A DNA stretch of 64,000 nt from a virus (taxonomy: Duplodnaviria > Caudoviricetes), in the IMG/VR virus record IMGVR_UViG_3300025121_000013; one strand, 5' to 3'. The translations under genes were made by a program, and so were the position numbers. Numbering within the stretch: the stretch's first letter is position 1; every line of letters begins with the position of its first letter. The notes beneath the pieces were generated by a model, which saw only the letters and a program-made list of their open reading frames with translations, was not told the origin of the DNA and ran no database searches. Of the stretch, positions 22,053-29,656 are shown piece by piece.

Positions 22053-22142
22053 TGGTGCCGAGGACGGGAGTCGAACCCGTACAGGGATTTCTCCACCGAG
22101 GGATTTTAAGTCCCTTGCGTCTACCAGTTCCGCCACCCCGGC
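22053..22142 (-). tRNA. tRNA-Leu(UAA)
   Basis: AGGGA-CT TAA AA-TCCCT; long variable arm; encoded CCA; no intron. Confidence 0.93.
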
Positions 22143-22161: not shown

Positions 22162-23493
22162 TTAACAGATTGAATTGAAAAAGGTTTTATCTATATGTTT
22201 AGGGCCAAAAGATAATATTTTGATAGGAACTTCAGTTTCTTCTCTTATAAATCTAAAAAATTTACTTTCCCATCCCCTTCCTTGAAAAGTTTCATAAGAG
22301 GGTTTAACAAAAGGTAAATATTTTGTAAGAAAGTTCTCTTCTGAAAGATCATATATTTCATTAGATTGAATATATTCGAAAAACAATTTATCTATATTTT
22401 TTAGTTCATCAAAAACATAATTTGTACAAACCTTTATTTTATCCATTTTATTAAGAAGATCAATATGGGTCAAAGCAATTCCATCTAAACCATTCGAAAT
22501 ATTTAAAGAATATTTCAAAGCAACTAAATCTAAATGTCCAATTCTAAATTTTCCCTGCCATCCATTATTTACATTATGTTTATCAAAAAATCTTAGAGAT
22601 TCATCTTCTGTAATTAATGGGCCATTACCATGTCTTGTGGTAAAAATTCTTGAAATGCCAATCATTTGAATATTTTCAATATCTTTAAAATCTATCGGAT
22701 TAATGGCAACATGTCTTTTTGTTACATATGGCAAGACCCCATATCTTGGGTCAAGAAGATTTCCTTGGGAGCTCTCAAAGATTATAACATCATTTGAAAT
22801 TTCATCGAGCTTTTCAAAAGGAAGATTATGAACATGACTTTCAATATATACTTTAAATTTTTTATATTCAGAATGTAAAAATTTAATATATTTTTTATTT
22901 ATAAAAGTACTAATAATTTTATCTTCTCGTATTGAAGAAGGAAATTCATCTAACAATTCATTTAAAATAAAATTGATTTTATCAAGCAAATATTTATCAG
23001 GTTTAAATAAATCAATGACTTTCAAAGTTGGGATATTTTTTTGTTTAGACCTTACATATTCTCCAACTCCAGCACCGCATGTGCTAAATTTTTTAACCCT
23101 ATCATATTCTCTTTTTCTGCCGAATAAAACATGAAAAGGAAGAATCAATTCACAATTTTCATGGATATCTATTCTTTCCCAAATATTTCTCGTTTTTGTA
23201 TTTAATACTTTCGCTTCTTCCATCATAGTCAAAGGGTCAAAAACCATATCTTCTGAATAAACGGTATTTGACTTTAAGTTTGATAAAGAATTGGAACCGA
23301 AGTGACTAAAACAATGATGAATATTTTTATTTATAACATTATGAGCGGCTTGATGTGCTCCATTAAATCGAATAGCTGTTGAAGGCCCAAACTTATGTCC
23401 AAGGGCATCAATAATACTTCCTTTTCCTTCATCTCCATAATTTAAGCCGAAAATCAAAAAACATTTTTTTCCTTTAAATATTTTATTATTCAT
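22162..23493 (-). CDS. Divergent adenylosuccinate synthetase-family ligase
   Basis: YGDEGKG, RFNGAHQAAHN, FESSQG.LLD, PYVT, TTRHG.GP, THID and SFGP; Asp-binding loop replaced by NNGWQGKFR. Confidence 0.85.
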   Translation of the reverse strand: MNNKIFKGKKCFLIFGLNYGDEGKGSIIDALGHKFGPSTAIRFNGAHQAAHNVINKNIHHCFSHFGSNSLSNLKSNTVYSEDMVFDPLTMMEEAKVLNTKTRNIWERIDIHENCELILPFHVLFGRKREYDRVKKFSTCGAGVGEYVRSKQKNIPTLKVIDLFKPDKYLLDKINFILNELLDEFPSSIREDKIISTFINKKYIKFLHSEYKKFKVYIESHVHNLPFEKLDEISNDVIIFESSQGNLLDPRYGVLPYVTKRHVAINPIDFKDIENIQMIGISRIFTTRHGNGPLITEDESLRFFDKHNVNNGWQGKFRIGHLDLVALKYSLNISNGLDGIALTHIDLLNKMDKIKVCTNYVFDELKNIDKLFFEYIQSNEIYDLSEENFLTKYLPFVKPSYETFQGRGWESKFFRFIREETEVPIKILSFGPKHIDKTFFNSIC

Positions 23494-24394
23494 TTTTATA
23501 TTCAGGATTGAAAGGATATATATAGTTTGGAGTGATTACCGCTTTATGAGATATTTCATCCCCCAAAAGAAAATTTTTATAACCAAGAGATTTCATAAAT
23601 TTTATATCCATAAAATTAGCCATATTATTTGGTTCTACATCTAAAGGAAGGTCTGTCGCTAAAATAGCTTCAGGATCCTTTTTAATAATAAAGTCTAAAT
23701 AAAGGGTGAAGAAATTTATATCATTTAATGAATTTATAAATAAATCTTGCCTCGCTGCCATCAAATTACATTTTAAATCAGAAAGATTTTTAGGGCTTAT
23801 GGTTGTCAAAAGACGAAGCCCTTCCATTGATTCGATTTTTAATATAAGATTAGATTCTGGATAAAGATCTCTTATTATCTGCAGATCTTCATATTTTTCA
23901 AAAAAGGAAATCATAAAATTCTGACAAGAAAACTCTTTACAAGCCTTAATAAATTCTAAATCTTCATTAGTTAAAAACCCGTCAACCTTTAAATTTTTTC
24001 CAATGATATTAACTGATTGCCCTTTTCCTACAGCATACCTCGGAATAGGGTCAACAAAAATTTTATTTCCAACTATTGATTTAATTTCACTTGGTTCAGA
24101 AGAACCTCTGAAATATATTGTAGCGGGGAGATCAACTTTTACATTATGATTTAATAATATATCTCCATATTTTGGAAACGCCCATTCAAGAATTCTTAAT
24201 TGCCTTCCTTTAAGATCAACCCATAAATTTTTATCAAATCTTATGCATTCTCGTGTCAAAAATTCTATTGTTTTAAAAGGAGTTAGATCCGAAGTACATC
24301 CGGTATTATATCTAACATTTTTAATTTTTTCATTTTTTAAAATATCATAAAGAATTTTTGTTTGATATATTGGAGGTAAAGTACAATATAGCAA
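23486..24394 (-). CDS. Pyruvate kinase-like protein (A and B domains only)
   Basis: YCTLPP, RYN, VDLKGRQLR, LKIES.EG, MAARQDL, ATD and LLGDE parallel the PK barrel motifs; no C domain. Confidence 0.75.
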   Translation of the reverse strand: MLYCTLPPIYQTKILYDILKNEKIKNVRYNTGCTSDLTPFKTIEFLTRECIRFDKNLWVDLKGRQLRILEWAFPKYGDILLNHNVKVDLPATIYFRGSSEPSEIKSIVGNKIFVDPIPRYAVGKGQSVNIIGKNLKVDGFLTNEDLEFIKACKEFSCQNFMISFFEKYEDLQIIRDLYPESNLILKIESMEGLRLLTTISPKNLSDLKCNLMAARQDLFINSLNDINFFTLYLDFIIKKDPEAILATDLPLDVEPNNMANFMDIKFMKSLGYKNFLLGDEISHKAVITPNYIYPFNPEYKNE

Positions 24395-24395
24395 T

Positions 24396-25361
24396 TTATA
24401 ATTTTCTTATAGAACTTTTTCTAGAAATATTTGATTGTTCAGGAAGTTTATTTATAGGAACCGAGGGAACTAATGATCTACAAAATTCTCCAAGACTATT
24501 AGAAACATTTTCAATTCTTTCATTTGTTTGTTTTCTATTTTTCATATCATCAATATAACTTGACATATCTCTTGAATTATAAGCCATGGCTATAATTCCC
24601 AAAATAATATCGATCACAGATTTTTCTTCTTTTAGAAGAATAATATTTTGAGAAGGAAGCATTGCTTTCCAAGAGCGAATAATACTTTCTTCAAAATCAA
24701 ATCCCTGATATTTATTTAACAAAACAAAAACATTATTTTTAAATTTTTTCATAAGTTTCGTAAATATTGTTTTTGAGGGGATTTCATTGTTAAGGGTAAT
24801 ATTTAAGATTGATGAACTTATTCTATTTGTTAAATATGAATATGGACTTTCATCAGCGAGAAAGAAAAAGAATGGAAATACATCTTTATGGGTTAATTTA
24901 CATTTTTCATTAAAGTACTCAGCAGCCAATTCATAAGTTTCCGTTTGTTGCCCACCACCACTTCCCTCTAGATATAATTTTTCAATCCATTTTTCATTTT
25001 CAATTCCATAAGCAAAATCAGAAATTTGTAAAGGGGCTGAATCACAATATGCATCTCCAACTGCGGAGAAGGAAAGTTCAAATTCATCTTTTGGCAAATA
25101 ACCTTGTTGTTCAATTTGTCCATGTAACATTGGGGCCTTGTCATAAAATACCTTTGCAAAATTTATATTTGATCCCGTAACGTCAAGCATCAATACAATT
25201 GGATGTTTAGCCGAACATACAATATTTCTTTTTGGGTCTAAATCTTTATGTAATTCCTCAGATTTAAAAATTGTATTGGAAACTGTTGAGGCCATACCAC
25301 TGCCAAAATTGGAAGATGACCTACTGCCATAGACAGGTCTGTCATATGATGAGCCGCCCAT
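24396..25361 (-). CDS. vWA domain protein
   Basis: LDVTGS MIDAS, AVGDAY.D..PLQ, LEG.GGG...E.YELA and FF.ADE. Confidence 0.8.
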   Translation of the reverse strand: MGGSSYDRPVYGSRSSSNFGSGMASTVSNTIFKSEELHKDLDPKRNIVCSAKHPIVLMLDVTGSNINFAKVFYDKAPMLHGQIEQQGYLPKDEFELSFSAVGDAYCDSAPLQISDFAYGIENEKWIEKLYLEGSGGGQQTETYELAAEYFNEKCKLTHKDVFPFFFFLADESPYSYLTNRISSSILNITLNNEIPSKTIFTKLMKKFKNNVFVLLNKYQGFDFEESIIRSWKAMLPSQNIILLKEEKSVIDIILGIIAMAYNSRDMSSYIDDMKNRKQTNERIENVSNSLGEFCRSLVPSVPINKLPEQSNISRKSSIRKL

Positions 25362-25362
25362 T

Positions 25363-26454
25363 TCATATTCCCTTCCCTGGAACTTTATCTAAGAAATCTC
25401 TAAAACGATCTGGTCCAAAATATTTGGTTCTAATTTTTTCTAATTTTTCCCATTCTTGAAAACAATCATCAGATCTTTTTTTAGGATTTGACTCAACCAT
25501 TTTTTGAATTAGAGAATCAAAATCTGGATAATCTTTTATATTTTTTTGATAATTATTTTCATTGTTTCCTGACAACAAATATATCATAGATTTTCCTATT
25601 GAGAATAAATCAGTTCTTGGATGGGGTGAAAGGTCTTTAGTTATTTCTGGAGCTGAAAAATCATTTAATAAACTATATTTTGCATCATTTGAATTAGCAT
25701 CTTGGATCGCTCCGCAAAAATCAATTATGGTTACGTTATGATTATAATGGGTTACAATTAAATTTGAAGGTTCAATGAGGCCATGAATAATTAATTTTGA
25801 ATGTAAATTACCACAGGCTGATAAAATTCTTTCAAGTATCCATACAGCATTCGAAACAGAAATTCCTTCAGTATAAAAATTTTGTAAAGTACAAAAATCA
25901 AACCCCTCAATATATTTAGTTACATTGGCTAAAGAATCATCTGAAAATTTAAAATGATCTAAATAAACAGGAAATGACAATGGGTTTAAATTTTTTTGAA
26001 TATGTATTAACATTTCTTTTTCATGTAAAATTAAATCATTGGAATCTTTTGAAACCTTCATACAAACTTTTATTTTTGCTCCGGTGTGATATTCTCGATC
26101 ACATAAATAAATATTTGAGAAATCTCCTTCTATCATATGTTTTAAAATATGATAAGTTTTATCATTTATTTTAAATATACTTTCATTTTTATCCATTCGT
26201 TTAAAAGGAATATTATTATCGAGACAAAAAAGTACAAGGTCTTTTAATTCAGTTAAATGTCTAAATGCTTCATTTGACAATTCTTGTTCTTTACTTGTCA
26301 TAGGATTACATTTATCTGGATGGAGAATAAACAAAAATGATCGATAGCACGAAATAATTTCTTTTTTGCCTTGATAAAGTATCCCACCAAAAAGATCTTT
26401 TGGATCAATGATTTTTAAAATTTTTTCACAAAAATCTTTTTGTTCTTGATCCAA
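25363..26454 (-). CDS. J-domain fused to a Ser/Thr kinase-like domain (pseudokinase)
   Basis: YR.....LHPDK J motif; MKVS, HEKE, HGLIEPSN (HRD Asp absent), IDF, APE and DLFSIG. Confidence 0.75.
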   Translation of the reverse strand: MDQEQKDFCEKILKIIDPKDLFGGILYQGKKEIISCYRSFLFILHPDKCNPMTSKEQELSNEAFRHLTELKDLVLFCLDNNIPFKRMDKNESIFKINDKTYHILKHMIEGDFSNIYLCDREYHTGAKIKVCMKVSKDSNDLILHEKEMLIHIQKNLNPLSFPVYLDHFKFSDDSLANVTKYIEGFDFCTLQNFYTEGISVSNAVWILERILSACGNLHSKLIIHGLIEPSNLIVTHYNHNVTIIDFCGAIQDANSNDAKYSLLNDFSAPEITKDLSPHPRTDLFSIGKSMIYLLSGNNENNYQKNIKDYPDFDSLIQKMVESNPKKRSDDCFQEWEKLEKIRTKYFGPDRFRDFLDKVPGKGI

Positions 26455-26457
26455 GTC

Positions 26458-27768
26458 TTATATCTTCTCCTTCCAAAATAGATTCAAGGCTAAAGTTGAA
26501 CATCTCTCTTGAAATTGTGCTCCGGTATCTCCATCTCCATCTTGAACTATTTTATTTATTTCATCAGGAAAATCAGAAAGGATTCTTTCAGCGATTTCTA
26601 ATCTACATTTTTCATCAAGAATTGTTAAATGAATAATTCTATCTATTCTTCCGGGCCTTATTGTCATTTTTCCATTTGAGACTTTTGAAGCGATTGCGTC
26701 ATCTAAATGATCTATATTATTTGTAGTTATGAAAGTTAAAATTCCATTTGAATTATAAATTCCATCTATGCAATTTAATAGACAATCAAATGAAAGAGGT
26801 TTTTTTAACATGTCTTGTTTTGATATATTTTCTCTTTTTTTGAACGTTGCGTCAATATCTTCAAAAAGTGCAATACAAGGAGAATTAGAAAGCATTTCAT
26901 TCCAATTTGTTATAAGCTCTTCATTTGATAAAGTTGATAAATCAAAAGACCAAATGGGAAAATCAAATTCTTGCCCAAGAGAACGAACTAAAGATGTTTT
27001 TCCTGTTCCGGGCAAACCATATAATAATATTCCTCTTTTCCAAGGAATTCCTTTTTCTTTAAACCAATCTCTACTTTCTTTCCATGTTTTTATTTCGTTA
27101 ATAATATTTTTTATTTCTTCAGGAAACGCCAAATTTTTTATTGGTGTATTATGAATTGAAGAAGTTATATCATCGAGATCAAAATTAAGTATTCTTTTTG
27201 ATCTAAAAAAATATGAATCTTGTGAAAAATCTATATTATTTTGATTCGGTTGAGAACGCTCAATTGAAGGAGATTTCCCCATTACTCTGGTTACAAAAAA
27301 CCTTTGAGGAAAATTGCCCGCATTGTCATTAAATTCTTTTACTATTTCAGAAATAAATTTATCTGGATCTAAAGTTCCCCTTAAAAAAGTTATAGTAAAA
27401 GAAATGTTATATTCTTCATTTCTAATATGTTTTTGTACTCCATTTATAAATAAAATTTTAAATCCATTTCTAAATATTAAATTAGGAGCATTAATTTTTT
27501 GATAAGAAACGAGAACATTTCTATCTTTTGATTTAGAAAATGTGAAAACAGAATTATAAGTTTTATTTAAGATTTTTAAAGGCTTATAATTTTTTAGTAT
27601 ATTTGAGATTGCTAAATCTATTAAATTATTATTTTCAATTTTTACTGTCACAAAAATTAAACTAAATAAATGTTGAAGAATGGTTTTCACTTTTTCCCAA
27701 AATGCTGCAATGAAGCCGGCTGCGGCACCTCCCAATAAGATAGAACTTCCTGAAAGATTTTCTAGCAT
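26458..27768 (-). CDS. BCS1-like AAA+ ATPase with N-terminal membrane anchor
   Basis: WKRGILLYG.PGTGKTS, FEDID, LLN.IDG, TTN..D.LD.A and RPGRID. Confidence 0.85.
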   Translation of the reverse strand: MLENLSGSSILLGGAAAGFIAAFWEKVKTILQHLFSLIFVTVKIENNNLIDLAISNILKNYKPLKILNKTYNSVFTFSKSKDRNVLVSYQKINAPNLIFRNGFKILFINGVQKHIRNEEYNISFTITFLRGTLDPDKFISEIVKEFNDNAGNFPQRFFVTRVMGKSPSIERSQPNQNNIDFSQDSYFFRSKRILNFDLDDITSSIHNTPIKNLAFPEEIKNIINEIKTWKESRDWFKEKGIPWKRGILLYGLPGTGKTSLVRSLGQEFDFPIWSFDLSTLSNEELITNWNEMLSNSPCIALFEDIDATFKKRENISKQDMLKKPLSFDCLLNCIDGIYNSNGILTFITTNNIDHLDDAIASKVSNGKMTIRPGRIDRIIHLTILDEKCRLEIAERILSDFPDEINKIVQDGDGDTGAQFQERCSTLALNLFWKEKI

Positions 27769-27792
27769 CTTTTCTCCTTAACCTGGTCTGGA

Positions 27793-27828
27793 GGGGCCCC
27801 TCATGAGAAAAGTCTCACAAGGGGCCCC
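27793..27828 (-). promoter_or_regulatory. GC-rich hairpin upstream of the AAA operon
   Basis: GGGGCCCCT..TGAGA/TCTCA..AGGGGCCCC. Confidence 0.5.
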
Positions 27829-27995
27829 ATACAATTCAACGGAAAAACAAACTAATAATTCCATCTAAAATATCTGGTTCTTTTATGAGAAGAATGAAAC
27901 AGAAAAACGAAATCCAAGATATAGTTCTAAAAAATAAATATTTTGTCATTTTAATCCTTTCTATGGATTTATCTCATTCTTTATAATTTTTAGAC

Positions 27996-28661
27996 TTAAA
28001 ACATTCTTTCAAATTCTTCATAACTTTTATCAAATAATAAAAAACATGCTTTATCAATTTCGGAAATATTTTTATCAAAACGAGGAATTGAAGGAAGGAT
28101 CTTATTTTCTTCTAAATTTTTAAAATCTATTAAATTATTCAAAAACTTTTTTCTAATGCTATCCAATAAAATATCAAAACAAATTTTTGTTATTTTAGTT
28201 CCAAGAATTACTAACAAGTCTTCAAAATCTTGAGTATTTTTCTCTATTTTATTTAAGGACGCTTCAATATTTTTCTTATATTCGTCCAATGCTTTATCAA
28301 AAATAATACTTTCATTTTCATCAATTTTATAATCTAATTCTTTTACAACGTTTTTAGCAAATTCTAACCATCCACCATTTATACGTTTTTGTTTATGTAA
28401 TTTTATTTGTTTATCTTCAATATCATTATACTTTTGGAAAATTGCACAAAATTCTTCAATTGTTCTCCTTAGAGAATCTCTCATTGACAGTGATGCAAAT
28501 TTATTTCCATAAATAAATTGAATTTTTTTGATTGAAAATTCACAATTAAACTTATCTAATTCTGAATCTGTTATATTTAAGGAATCAAAAAAAGAACTTA
28601 TATCTATTTCAATAAAATGACTCGTAAAAAATTTTGAGATAGAATCCGAAAATAATTTCAT
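27996..28661 (-). CDS. Hypothetical helical protein
   Basis: ATGA overlap with the upstream TelA-like gene. Confidence 0.6.
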   Translation of the reverse strand: MKLFSDSISKFFTSHFIEIDISSFFDSLNITDSELDKFNCEFSIKKIQFIYGNKFASLSMRDSLRRTIEEFCAIFQKYNDIEDKQIKLHKQKRINGGWLEFAKNVVKELDYKIDENESIIFDKALDEYKKNIEASLNKIEKNTQDFEDLLVILGTKITKICFDILLDSIRKKFLNNLIDFKNLEENKILPSIPRFDKNISEIDKACFLLFDKSYEEFERMF

Positions 28662-29656
28662 TCAATAAATCTTGTATCAGATGTGCTTCCCATTAATTTA
28701 GGTAATTCTTTTCTTAACCGAGCATCTTCCGCAATAACTTTATTTGCGGTTTCGATACATTTTGCTCTTCCGTTTTCGACAGCAGCTTTTACCCCTTCCA
28801 GAAGTTTTATTGTGGATATTGAAACTTGTCCAATTGTTTCAGGAAATATATCCGGAGACGATACCATTTCAGTGACTCTTTTTGTATCCGATGCGATTGT
28901 TTGGCTGCATTGAACGACAAGAGAATTTAATCCATTTCTAACCGAAGTGACTTTCTCACTTGTTAAAGCGTTTCCTAATTGCATGATATATGTGGATAAT
29001 TCGGTTTTAATTAGAACATTTAATTGAGGATAGGTATTTTCGATAAAATCTAAGAGAAGTTCAATTTCTGTTATTTGCCCTCCTAGATGAATAATATTAT
29101 TTTTAAAAATAAAAAGAAATGAATCAATATTTACAAGAGTTTTCTTCAACTTATCTAACATTTTTGAATTATCATTTATATTATTTTCAATATTATCTGA
29201 TTTATTATTTTGGACGTTTTCAATTTCTTTTGATATATCTTTTCTTAAAATATTCAATTCTGAAACTATCTGTTCTGCTTTTGACCCATAACTATAACAA
29301 GTTTCCATTTTAGCTTTAAGTTTGATAGCGTCTTCATCAAATGATTTTTTGATATCTTCCAAAACATCGCTGACCATTTTTCTATCAGTTATTTTTGAAA
29401 CAATGGAACGTTTTGTTTTTTGATAAAATTTATCTATAAATGAAGGAAGAAATTTCGTTTTTTGATCCTTGAGGTTTTCAATGCAGGAATTCATTCTTTC
29501 TATTGTATTTTTCATGTCTTCTAAATCAGCCATATTTGTATTGGCTAAAATTCCATCACTAATTTTTGTCGCCTCTTGAAAAATTACAGAAATTCTTTCT
29601 TTGACTGAAGTATATGCATCGTTGGGGCGAACATAAGAAGAAAGCTGACCCGGCAT
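28658..29656 (-). CDS. TelA-like (toxic anion resistance family) coiled-coil protein
   Basis: Length and helical pattern; C-terminal P.I..ET......L...V....NG..K resembles TelA. Confidence 0.55.
   Translation of the reverse strand: MPGQLSSYVRPNDAYTSVKERISVIFQEATKISDGILANTNMADLEDMKNTIERMNSCIENLKDQKTKFLPSFIDKFYQKTKRSIVSKITDRKMVSDVLEDIKKSFDEDAIKLKAKMETCYSYGSKAEQIVSELNILRKDISKEIENVQNNKSDNIENNINDNSKMLDKLKKTLVNIDSFLFIFKNNIIHLGGQITEIELLLDFIENTYPQLNVLIKTELSTYIMQLGNALTSEKVTSVRNGLNSLVVQCSQTIASDTKRVTEMVSSPDIFPETIGQVSISTIKLLEGVKAAVENGRAKCIETANKVIAEDARLRKELPKLMGSTSDTRFIE

Follow-up and report, generated by a model that had tools for sequence, protein, structure and literature searches.

Proteins with a vWA domain commonly pair with AAA+ motors, as in the couples CbbQ/CbbO, NorQ/NorD and BchI/BchD. 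Phages are known to re-tool the adenylosuccinate synthetase PurA for DNA-base synthesis: in the phage enzyme PurZ, Asp13 is replaced by Ser in 147 of 147 sequences, and these 147 are the only PurZ proteins among 481 phage PurA homologs counted, the remainder being left undiscussed (PMC12884076). A 2009 paper mentioned an adenylosuccinate synthase homolog in Bxz1-type phages without going further. Phage-borne nucleotide-cofactor genes have been described as NARP1 (Adps and Namat), NARP2 (NadV and NMNAT) and NARP3 (PnuC and NadR) (10.1101/2024.02.11.579819). Here we analyze a five-gene operon at positions 22162–27768 of a 64,000-nucleotide stretch of virus DNA, referred to below as the window, which is part of the 139,369-bp IMG/VR record IMGVR_UViG_3300025121_000013 (Duplodnaviria; Caudoviricetes; 45% complete). 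The source is a giant groundwater phage; the G+C content of the window (~29%) and its scattered tRNA genes fit a giant phage.

Four of the five genes, encoding a kinase-fold protein that we refer to as the J-domain pseudokinase, a vWA protein, a mini pyruvate kinase (mPK) and a PurA-like enzyme (PurAL), co-occur in distantly related bacteria, archaea and phages. The remaining gene, for an AAA+ ATPase, is placed in the unit by its position only, and its membership is weakly supported. We read the operon as the phage copy of a widespread cassette that may make or restore an adenine-nucleotide or nicotinamide adenine dinucleotide (NAD)-type cofactor, being powered by phosphoenolpyruvate (PEP) and using a vWA adaptor together with an ATP-driven remodeler. 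This reading is given a probability of roughly 0.45. A preliminary description of this DNA had treated all five genes as a single functional module; the neighbourhood survey of cells and viruses upholds this for the four-gene set as a conserved module, whereas the tie of the AAA+ gene stays doubtful.

In cellular genomes, a scan with the mPK profile over one genome per GTDB species returned 268 loci, 80 of which were kept, and 82 non-redundant loci were analyzed. Of these 82 loci, 76 have a vWA gene, 54 a PurAL gene and 45 a pseudokinase gene. The genes follow a fixed order: 42 loci have the pseudokinase immediately upstream of vWA and 48 have PurAL immediately downstream of mPK, and the mPK gene always adjoins the vWA gene. 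Kinase-vWA-mPK-PurAL strings were seen already in the first three contexts examined. The hosts are Patescibacteria, Woesearchaeota, Methanosarcinales, metagenome-assembled genomes of gut Clostridia and Bacilli, Acidobacteriota, Myxococcota, Planctomycetota, Chloroflexota, Leptospiraceae and Gammaproteobacteria.

The recurrent neighbours of the cellular cassette, which were named by de novo clustering together with Pfam and NCBIfam, include several genes of the NAD type, namely glutamine-dependent NadE (31 of the 82 loci), NMNAT/NadD (34), a uridine-kinase-like (Udk-like) kinase (25) and the ADP-ribose-responsive repressor NrtR (9), and at least one of these four is found in 61 loci. A second architecture, NMNAT-vWA-mPK-NadE, lacks both PurAL and the pseudokinase and is dominant in Chloroflexota, Myxococcota, Acidobacteriota and Planctomycetota (loci L054–L083 of the survey, for example L083:6302-11015); the Chloroflexota genomes with this architecture hold another NadE. 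Since the host genomes checked also encode canonical PurA and full-length pyruvate kinase and, in Chloroflexota, a second NadE, the cassette enzymes are extra paralogs, and an assignment of them as the housekeeping PurA and pyruvate kinase was rejected because housekeeping paralogs exist beside them. Its position next to NAD-building genes suggests that the cellular cassette probably makes or restores a nucleotide cofactor.

A parallel survey of viruses, in which IMG/VR was searched with a vWA profile, returned 160 loci, of which 80 were kept. All 80 have the vWA gene, with PurAL directly downstream in 74, whereas the pseudokinase was detected in 25 and mPK in only three. The phage core is the pair of vWA and PurAL, and the window is unusual in possessing all four cassette genes plus an AAA+ gene. 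A single-sequence scan of IMG/VR with the window mPK gave no match, and a profile scan gave one locus. In a protein search of 50,697 phage records, vWA and PurAL were found in ~200 mycobacteriophages of cluster C1 (Bxz1-like). Phage Catera (148907-152623) encodes the J-domain pseudokinase (gp249), vWA (gp250) and PurAL (gp252) but no mPK, and the same trio is present in Bxz1 and shared by ~200 cluster C1 phages. The arrangement is pseudokinase-vWA-mPK in an uncultured phage of 485 kb and vWA-PurAL in Vibrio phage phiTY18. At the DNA level, the operon had no match in the 50,697 records.

Two side observations concern individual viral loci. In a 243-kb IMG/VR contig (L086:7118-10144) a single in-frame TAG interrupts the PurAL gene and the vWA gene is fragmented, so that this copy is either undergoing decay or translated with recoding of the stop codon. 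In the viral contigs L141–L164, vWA and PurAL lie near genes for a Pol-beta/RlaP-like nucleotidyltransferase, a P-loop kinase with an HD domain and a DUF2828/Ro60-like vWA protein. Neighbours of this RNA-repair type are found at L152:9348-14304, L155:1781-2584 and L002:11021-15284, the last of these loci having in addition a T4 Rnl2-type RNA ligase. Proximity to RNA-repair genes is probably lineage-specific synteny, an RNA-linked role being the alternative.

The PurAL gene (22162–23493, minus strand, 443 amino acids) encodes a full-length member of the PurA superfamily, matching PF00709 over residues 14–433 (2.8e-58), with bacterial PurA as its best solved relatives (~1e-31). Its scores are far from those of the characterized enzymes: 169 against a cut-off of 402 for the PurA equivalog NF002223, 148 against 395.6 for TIGR00184, and 32.9 against 300 for the PurZ model NF038379. 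It also matches PHROG 1211, which carries a PurZ-type label (9e-55). Many viral PurAL proteins are shortened to ~350–400 amino acids.

We aligned 49 cassette-linked PurAL proteins with eight canonical PurA and compared their motifs. PurAL keeps the P-loop GDEGKG (Asp13 and Lys16) and the equivalents of His41, Gln224 and Asp333, the P-loop and the His of the GHN-type motif lining up with those of E. coli and Yersinia PurA; the Asp of GDEGKG is kept in the window and in 69 of 74 viral relatives. Asn38 is replaced by Gln throughout the family, and the positions of Thr129, Arg131 and Arg143 are not conserved. The aspartate loop TTGRxRR, present in all eight canonical controls, is replaced in the 49 PurAL by the consensus WQG-x-FR, which reads WQGKFRIGHLD in the window. 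From E. coli PurA structures, we take Asn38, Thr129 and (from the partner subunit) Arg143 to contact the 5'-phosphate of inosine monophosphate (IMP), the TTGRxRR preceding GWLD to bind the aspartate carboxylates, and Asp333 to specify guanine.

In a FastTree phylogeny of 153 sequences, evaluated by an unrooted split test as midpoint rooting was misleading, a canonical PurA clade of 41 sequences was split from all 50 cassette-linked sequences with a support of 1.0. Canonical PurA was present as well in three of five host genomes checked, PurAL being a paralog beside it; in one Parcubacteria genome PurAL was the sole PF00709 match. PurB is not a recurrent neighbour of the cassette and was not detected in the 139-kb phage record. 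By motifs, scores and position in the tree, PurAL is judged to be neither PurA nor PurZ, and it has likely kept GTP-dependent O-phosphorylation.

The vWA protein (24396–25361, minus strand, ATG start, 321 amino acids) is the hub of the cassette. No Pfam family matched it at E<=0.01, but its AlphaFold2 model (predicted local distance difference test, pLDDT, 87.8; N-terminus disordered) leaves the fold clear: integrin beta-I and CMG2 vWA domains make up its top 50 solved matches in Foldseek (~1e-6). The metal ion-dependent adhesion site (MIDAS) is complete (D60-x-T62-x-S64 ... D170), with all four residues invariant in the family, so that the earlier assignment as a vWA protein holds. The protein also matches phrog_2971 (3e-29). 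Its family comprises 626 representatives at E<=1e-10 among 1.84 billion and is distinct from generic vWA proteins.

The N-terminal tail of the vWA protein follows the presence of PurAL. Where vWA is encoded with PurAL it starts with M-G-x-G-S/T-aromatic in 99 of 103 cases, as opposed to three of 27 where PurAL is lacking (Fisher p = 6e-19, uncorrected for relatedness). The tail reads MGGSSYDR in the window and appears as an internal MGSGAWDSY in Catera gp250, whereas the vWA protein of the PurAL-less NMNAT-vWA-mPK-NadE loci starts with MYSWxDDTSDW. There is no such correspondence with the pseudokinase, found in only 25 of the 80 viral loci. Removal of the initiator Met exposes a Gly that directly follows it, and PurA chemistry requires a primary amine as the nucleophile. 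This exposed Gly, the amine-requiring chemistry and the lost carboxylate holders of PurAL together make the tail a candidate docking peptide, or even a candidate substrate, of PurAL. As a side observation, the annotation of Catera gp250 probably makes the protein too long, its GTG start being placed 12 codons ahead of the conserved MGSGAW start.

The mPK gene (23486–24394, minus strand, TTG start) is weakly recognized by sequence, with 20.9 bits against a cut-off of 30 for PF00224 and 25 against 306 for TIGR01064. Its AlphaFold2 model (pLDDT 88.1) superposes on the A and B domains of pyruvate kinase, and Foldseek retrieves PKM2, rabbit pyruvate kinase and PykF (E ~1e-14; template-modelling score ~0.7 over the query). 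Residues R28, N30, D60, K62, R67, K186, E188 and D217 are invariant in 30 sequences and, in an alignment to PykF, correspond to the pyruvate kinase motifs R-x-N, D-x-K-G-x-x-x-R and K-x-E and to the metal-binding Asp. The protein consists only of the A domain (TIM barrel) and the B domain (lid); the chain of 302 amino acids ends after the barrel, and there is no allosteric C domain. The positions of the monovalent-cation site have Leu and Arg-Gln. Relatives of ~300 amino acids are common in bacteria of the candidate phyla radiation and in DPANN archaea, and the search found no fused or longer forms, which is weak evidence. Full-length pyruvate kinase is also present in the host genomes checked.

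The kinase-fold protein (25363–26454, minus strand, TTG start, 363 amino acids) matches Pkinase at 1.5e-14. In a family alignment of 35 members, all 35 match Pkinase and 20 match DnaJ PF00226 (best 4.6e-7). The family conserves HPD with its flanking pattern, the beta3 Lys, the alphaC Glu and the Mg-binding Asn, whereas the catalytic-loop Asp (HRD/HGD) is replaced throughout: the family consensus of this loop is HGNIxPxN, with HGL in the window and HGA in Catera gp249. Three family members also match the ternary-complex domain TCAD9. From these features the protein is classed as a pseudokinase with a probable J domain, having an N-terminal HPD-containing J-domain-like segment and with ATP and Mg ligands kept, in agreement with what had been proposed from the window sequence. 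Hsp70 is present in five of five host genomes checked, archaeal ones included.

The AAA+ gene (26458–27768, minus strand, 436 amino acids in the open reading frame (ORF) list) is the first gene of the operon. A single AAA module (PF00004, 4e-17) covers residues 247–362; the N-terminus is hydrophobic, and the N-terminal 200 amino acids have no domain match. The protein further matches phrog_7485 (6e-36) and the PADLOC model IetA. Sequence comparison places it as a classical-clade AAA+ ATPase. Its earlier label of BCS1-like is weakly supported: BCS1 is the top solved match (1.1e-24), but p97 and NSF are level with it (~1e-24) and no BCS1_N Pfam domain was found in the protein. A direct IMG/VR search for its relatives found none, and one of the 80 viral loci has an AAA, located 6 kb from the cassette. 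Different classical AAA+ proteins of 610–890 amino acids are encoded in seven cellular loci, six of which have no pseudokinase, and in five the AAA+ gene is directly upstream of vWA; the loci in which AAA+ stands in for the pseudokinase are L035, L047, L048, L060, L063 and L070. Two of them, L035 and L048, have two vWA paralogs, one before mPK and one before the PurAL gene. The finding of an AAA+ in the slot otherwise occupied by the pseudokinase speaks for a remodeler.

These features can be assembled into a proposed mechanism. The mPK would convert PEP and a nucleoside diphosphate to a nucleoside triphosphate (GTP or ATP), free of the usual control by allosteric sugar phosphates. With GTP, PurAL would phosphorylate an oxygen of its substrate, after which a nitrogen nucleophile would displace the phosphate; this second substrate would not be free L-aspartate, and the nucleotide would be held in a manner other than that of IMP. 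The vWA protein would serve as an adaptor holding the enzymes, its PurAL-tracking Gly-tail either docking into PurAL or being its substrate. Assembly would be controlled by an ATP-driven remodeler, either the host DnaK, recruited via the J-domain pseudokinase, or an AAA+ protein, and this phage has both. In the phage, the module may keep or rebuild the host adenylate or NAD pool during infection. A scaffold or remodeler that controls two nucleotide enzymes, as put forward in the preliminary description, is the most economical reading of the architectures.

A more specific and rather improbable version of the chemistry would make PurAL a GTP-dependent protein-nucleotide ligase instead of a synthetase of small molecules, in which the alpha-amine of the invariant vWA N-terminal Gly, freed when the initiator Met is cleaved off, replaces L-aspartate and attacks a 6-phosphorylated purine nucleotide, yielding an N6-linked adenylate (+330.2 Da). 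In cells, the Udk-like kinase, mPK and the NadD/NMNAT and NadE paralogs could then build this handle up to a protein-tethered ATP or NAD. Such a reaction would explain why the two carboxylate-binding arginines of PurA have given way to aromatics, why the tail tracks PurAL, why the vWA+PurAL pair is universal in the phages and why extra paralogs are kept. We also considered the joining of ADP-ribose to nicotinamide or nicotinate by PurAL, as well as a re-amination of adenine nucleotides that had been deaminated, such as ITP or deamino-NAD, directed against deaminase defences.

Several results weigh against the proposed cofactor function. With mPK as the seed of the cellular survey and vWA as that of the viral one, the presence of these two genes is built into the counts, and the loci lack phylogenetic independence. 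NMNAT (PF01467), NadE, NAPRT (PF04095), a PRK-type kinase, Hsp70 and PurB were all absent from the 139-kb record, which is 45% complete, so that the link to NAD is borrowed from the cellular loci. Most phages have vWA and PurAL without mPK, and a PEP-driven supply of nucleoside triphosphate is thus not essential to PurAL. The window pseudokinase itself has no match to DnaJ PF00226 at E<=0.01. Relatives of the window AAA+ were not found beside the cassette in 85 cellular or mixed, five phage and 80 viral loci. Finally, when the operon and nine cellular loci were scanned with Rfam, no riboswitch that would name a ligand turned up at the cassette; the only matches were tRNAs and an unrelated glmS ribozyme.

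Among the alternatives, the simplest is a boost to purine salvage, in which PurAL is a divergent but genuine adenylosuccinate synthetase and mPK a genuine pyruvate kinase, both raising the AMP and ATP available to phage replication, while the vWA protein and the pseudokinase only regulate them. The PurA fold with the phosphotransfer residues Asp13, Lys16, His41 and Gln224 and the guanine-specifying Asp333 is kept, as is the catalytic set of pyruvate kinase; the mycobacteriophage gene bears the label PurA-like in SEA-PHAGES annotations, reduced-genome salvagers are numerous among the hosts, and there is the Parcubacteria genome whose sole PF00709 match is PurAL. We nevertheless regard this explanation as unlikely, given the family-wide WQGxFR in place of the aspartate loop, the loss of the Asn38, Thr129 and Arg143 contacts, scores far under every PurA equivalog cut-off, the separate clade, the canonical PurA in three of the five hosts, the lack of a recurrent PurB or of any PurB in the phage record, and the many viral members of ~350–400 amino acids. 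Synthesis of a modified base for the phage DNA, such as 2-aminoadenine, along a PurZ-like route would agree with the PHROG 1211 label and with the known re-tooling of phage PurA (PMC12884076). Its probability is close to negligible: PurZ has Ser at the Asp13 position that PurAL keeps as Asp (PMC12884076), PurAL scores 33 where NF038379 asks for 300, it has lost the aspartate loop on which PurZ depends, and in cellular genomes the same cassette sits beside NAD genes. PurAL was accordingly rejected as a PurZ or Z-base enzyme, since Asp13 is kept and the aspartate loop is lost.

Conflict or stress signalling of the Ter/TerY-P type, in which a vWA sensor and a kinase control a nucleotide-derived signal or toxin, as a defence in cells and for counter-defence or takeover in phages, is also quite improbable. 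The adjacent vWA and kinase-fold genes do recall the TerY-P triad, the spread is very patchy (more than ten phyla plus phages), the kinase fold matches PADLOC PD-T4-6, MkoA and mad6 while the AAA+ matches IetA, and there are the three TCAD9 matches in the pseudokinase family. However, the catalytic Asp is missing throughout the kinase family, PurAL, mPK and vWA have no PADLOC match, and the genes that recur nearby encode NAD enzymes of the housekeeping type and NrtR; no recurrent phosphatase or member of the TerD, TerB or TelA families was found in 162 loci. The gene at 28658–29656 (minus strand), previously taken for a TelA-like gene just upstream, encodes a coiled-coil protein of 332 amino acids and scores 23.5 bits against the TelA cut-off of 30, among matches to coiled-coil proteins (FAM184, LmuB), so that even its label is doubtful. 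No relative of this or any other upstream gene was found in 85 related loci, where NAD-synthesis genes occur instead and phosphatases are not recurrent, and the suggested link to Ter systems is not borne out. De novo clustering of 85 + 80 loci found no conserved Ter genes, and a Ter/TelA system was rejected on this ground. That the AAA+ is an unrelated neighbour, the functional unit being the four-gene cassette only, deserves to be taken more seriously, although we put it at somewhat less than an even chance. No other cassette has a relative of this AAA+ beside it, and about one-third of the junctions in this phage are <=3 nt anyway. On the other side are the 3-nt gap and the ribosome-binding site of the next gene within the AAA+ 3' end, the hairpin and 227-nt spacer that set the five genes apart as one block, the independent classical AAA+ in the equivalent slot of five to six cellular cassettes, and the general tendency of vWA proteins to pair with AAA+ motors.

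The layout of the operon is exactly as first described, with five consecutive minus-strand genes separated by gaps of 3, 1 and 1 nt and then an 8-nt overlap, ending before a tRNA-Leu gene. At the junction from AAA+ to kinase, a TAA stop is followed after 3 nt by TTG, and a GGAGG-type ribosome-binding site lies within the AAA+ 3' end. The kinase gene ends in TGA, 1 nt before the ATG of vWA, and the vWA gene ends in TAA, 1 nt before the TTG of mPK, which aligns with Met1 of the mPK family consensus; the 8-nt overlap is shared by the mPK and PurAL genes. The tRNA-Leu(UAA) gene (22053–22142, minus strand; ARAGORN; Rfam tRNA, 56.8 bits) lies 19 nt past the PurAL stop and marks the downstream boundary of the coding block. 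As a check against chance, 36% of the same-strand junctions in the window are <=3 nt, and the run of four tight junctions, the longest in the window, is nonetheless expected about once per window by chance. Tight packing alone is therefore no evidence of a module, and the case rests on conservation.

Upstream, a 227-nt spacer (27769–27995) with a strong hairpin parts the operon from the next gene. The hairpin, a GC-capped stem of 16 bp at 27793–27828 on the minus strand, lies in this leader, with 24 nt between it and the AAA+ start codon. The stem is perfect-ended (GGGGCCCC...GGGGCCCC; -33.8 kcal/mol, z = -4.05), unique within the 29% G+C window and matched in 0 of 100 shuffles. The junction sequence has no U-tract after the hairpin, which is likely an operon boundary or a processing or regulatory element. 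A scan found no minus-strand terminator-like site inside the operon, the promoter and terminator scan being uninformative in this AT-rich DNA. The same spacer contains a 37-codon ORF (27836–27949, minus strand) for a very hydrophobic peptide (MTKYLFFRTISWISFF...), with an AAAGGA-type ribosome-binding site ahead of it and its end a few bases before the hairpin; its product may be a small membrane protein or a leader peptide.

PurAL represents a third, uncharacterised branch of the PurA superfamily beside PurA and PurZ; its members, tied to a vWA partner, are spread over phages by the hundreds and over many lineages of cells. Should PurAL catalyze something other than the formation of adenylosuccinate, the reaction would be a new one for a nucleotide ligase, and the cassette may give phages and microbes with small genomes a new means of producing or protecting their adenine or NAD cofactors, on which phage-defence research currently focuses. 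In addition, the cassette contains a natural pyruvate kinase without the C domain and a bacterial J-domain pseudokinase, both of which are rare. Members of the Bxz1/Catera group have the pseudokinase-vWA-PurAL trio and grow on M. smegmatis, and are thus testable at the bench now.

Compared with known enzymes, PurAL resembles PurA of the E. coli type (PF00709/TIGR00184) in its full-length fold, GDEGKG, catalytic His, Gln224 and guanine-binding Asp, and differs from it in the aspartate loop, Asn38, Thr129/Arg131/Arg143, model scores, clade and the vWA gene beside it. With PurZ and PurZ0, the enzymes of the 2-aminoadenine pathway, it has in common that it is a phage-borne, re-tooled PurA paralog with the PHROG 1211 label; however, PurZ with its Ser13 still uses aspartate (PMC12884076), whereas in PurAL Asp13 is retained and the aspartate loop is missing. 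Partners of the DatZ/MazZ type were not seen with PurAL, whose partners are vWA, the pseudokinase and mPK. The mPK shares the A+B fold and the catalytic and metal-binding residues of PykF and PKM, from which it differs in lacking the C-terminal allosteric/tetramer domain, in its vWA neighbour and in being an extra paralog.

As a whole, the cassette recalls the AAA+/vWA couples for enzyme activation or metal insertion, CbbQ/CbbO, NorQ/NorD, CoxD/CoxE and BchI/BchD, in which the gene for a MIDAS vWA adaptor lies by those for an ATP-driven motor and a target enzyme. The predicted motor of the cassette is not of the MoxR type; usually it would be a J-domain protein that borrows Hsp70, and much more rarely a classical AAA (PF00004). 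Its putative targets are nucleotide enzymes. The TerY-P triad (the vWA protein TerY, a Ser/Thr kinase and a PP2C phosphatase) is similar in coupling vWA to a kinase fold and in its patchy spread, whereas the kinase of the cassette is catalytically dead and has a J-domain-like segment, phosphatase and Ter genes are absent, and the constant partners are biosynthetic enzymes. Like NARP1-3, the cassette involves phage-borne nucleotide-cofactor genes, and its cellular versions are tied to NAD genes and to the ADP-ribose sensor NrtR, but none of the NARP1-3 enzyme families is present in the operon or in the 139-kb record (45% complete). A literature search found no paper describing the cassette. It is an undescribed system built from known folds and is distinct in its features from PurA, PurZ, full-length pyruvate kinase, TerY-P and NARP1-3; what is new here is the pair of vWA and PurAL as a phage core, the exchange of AAA+ and pseudokinase in one slot and the correlation of the vWA tail with PurAL.

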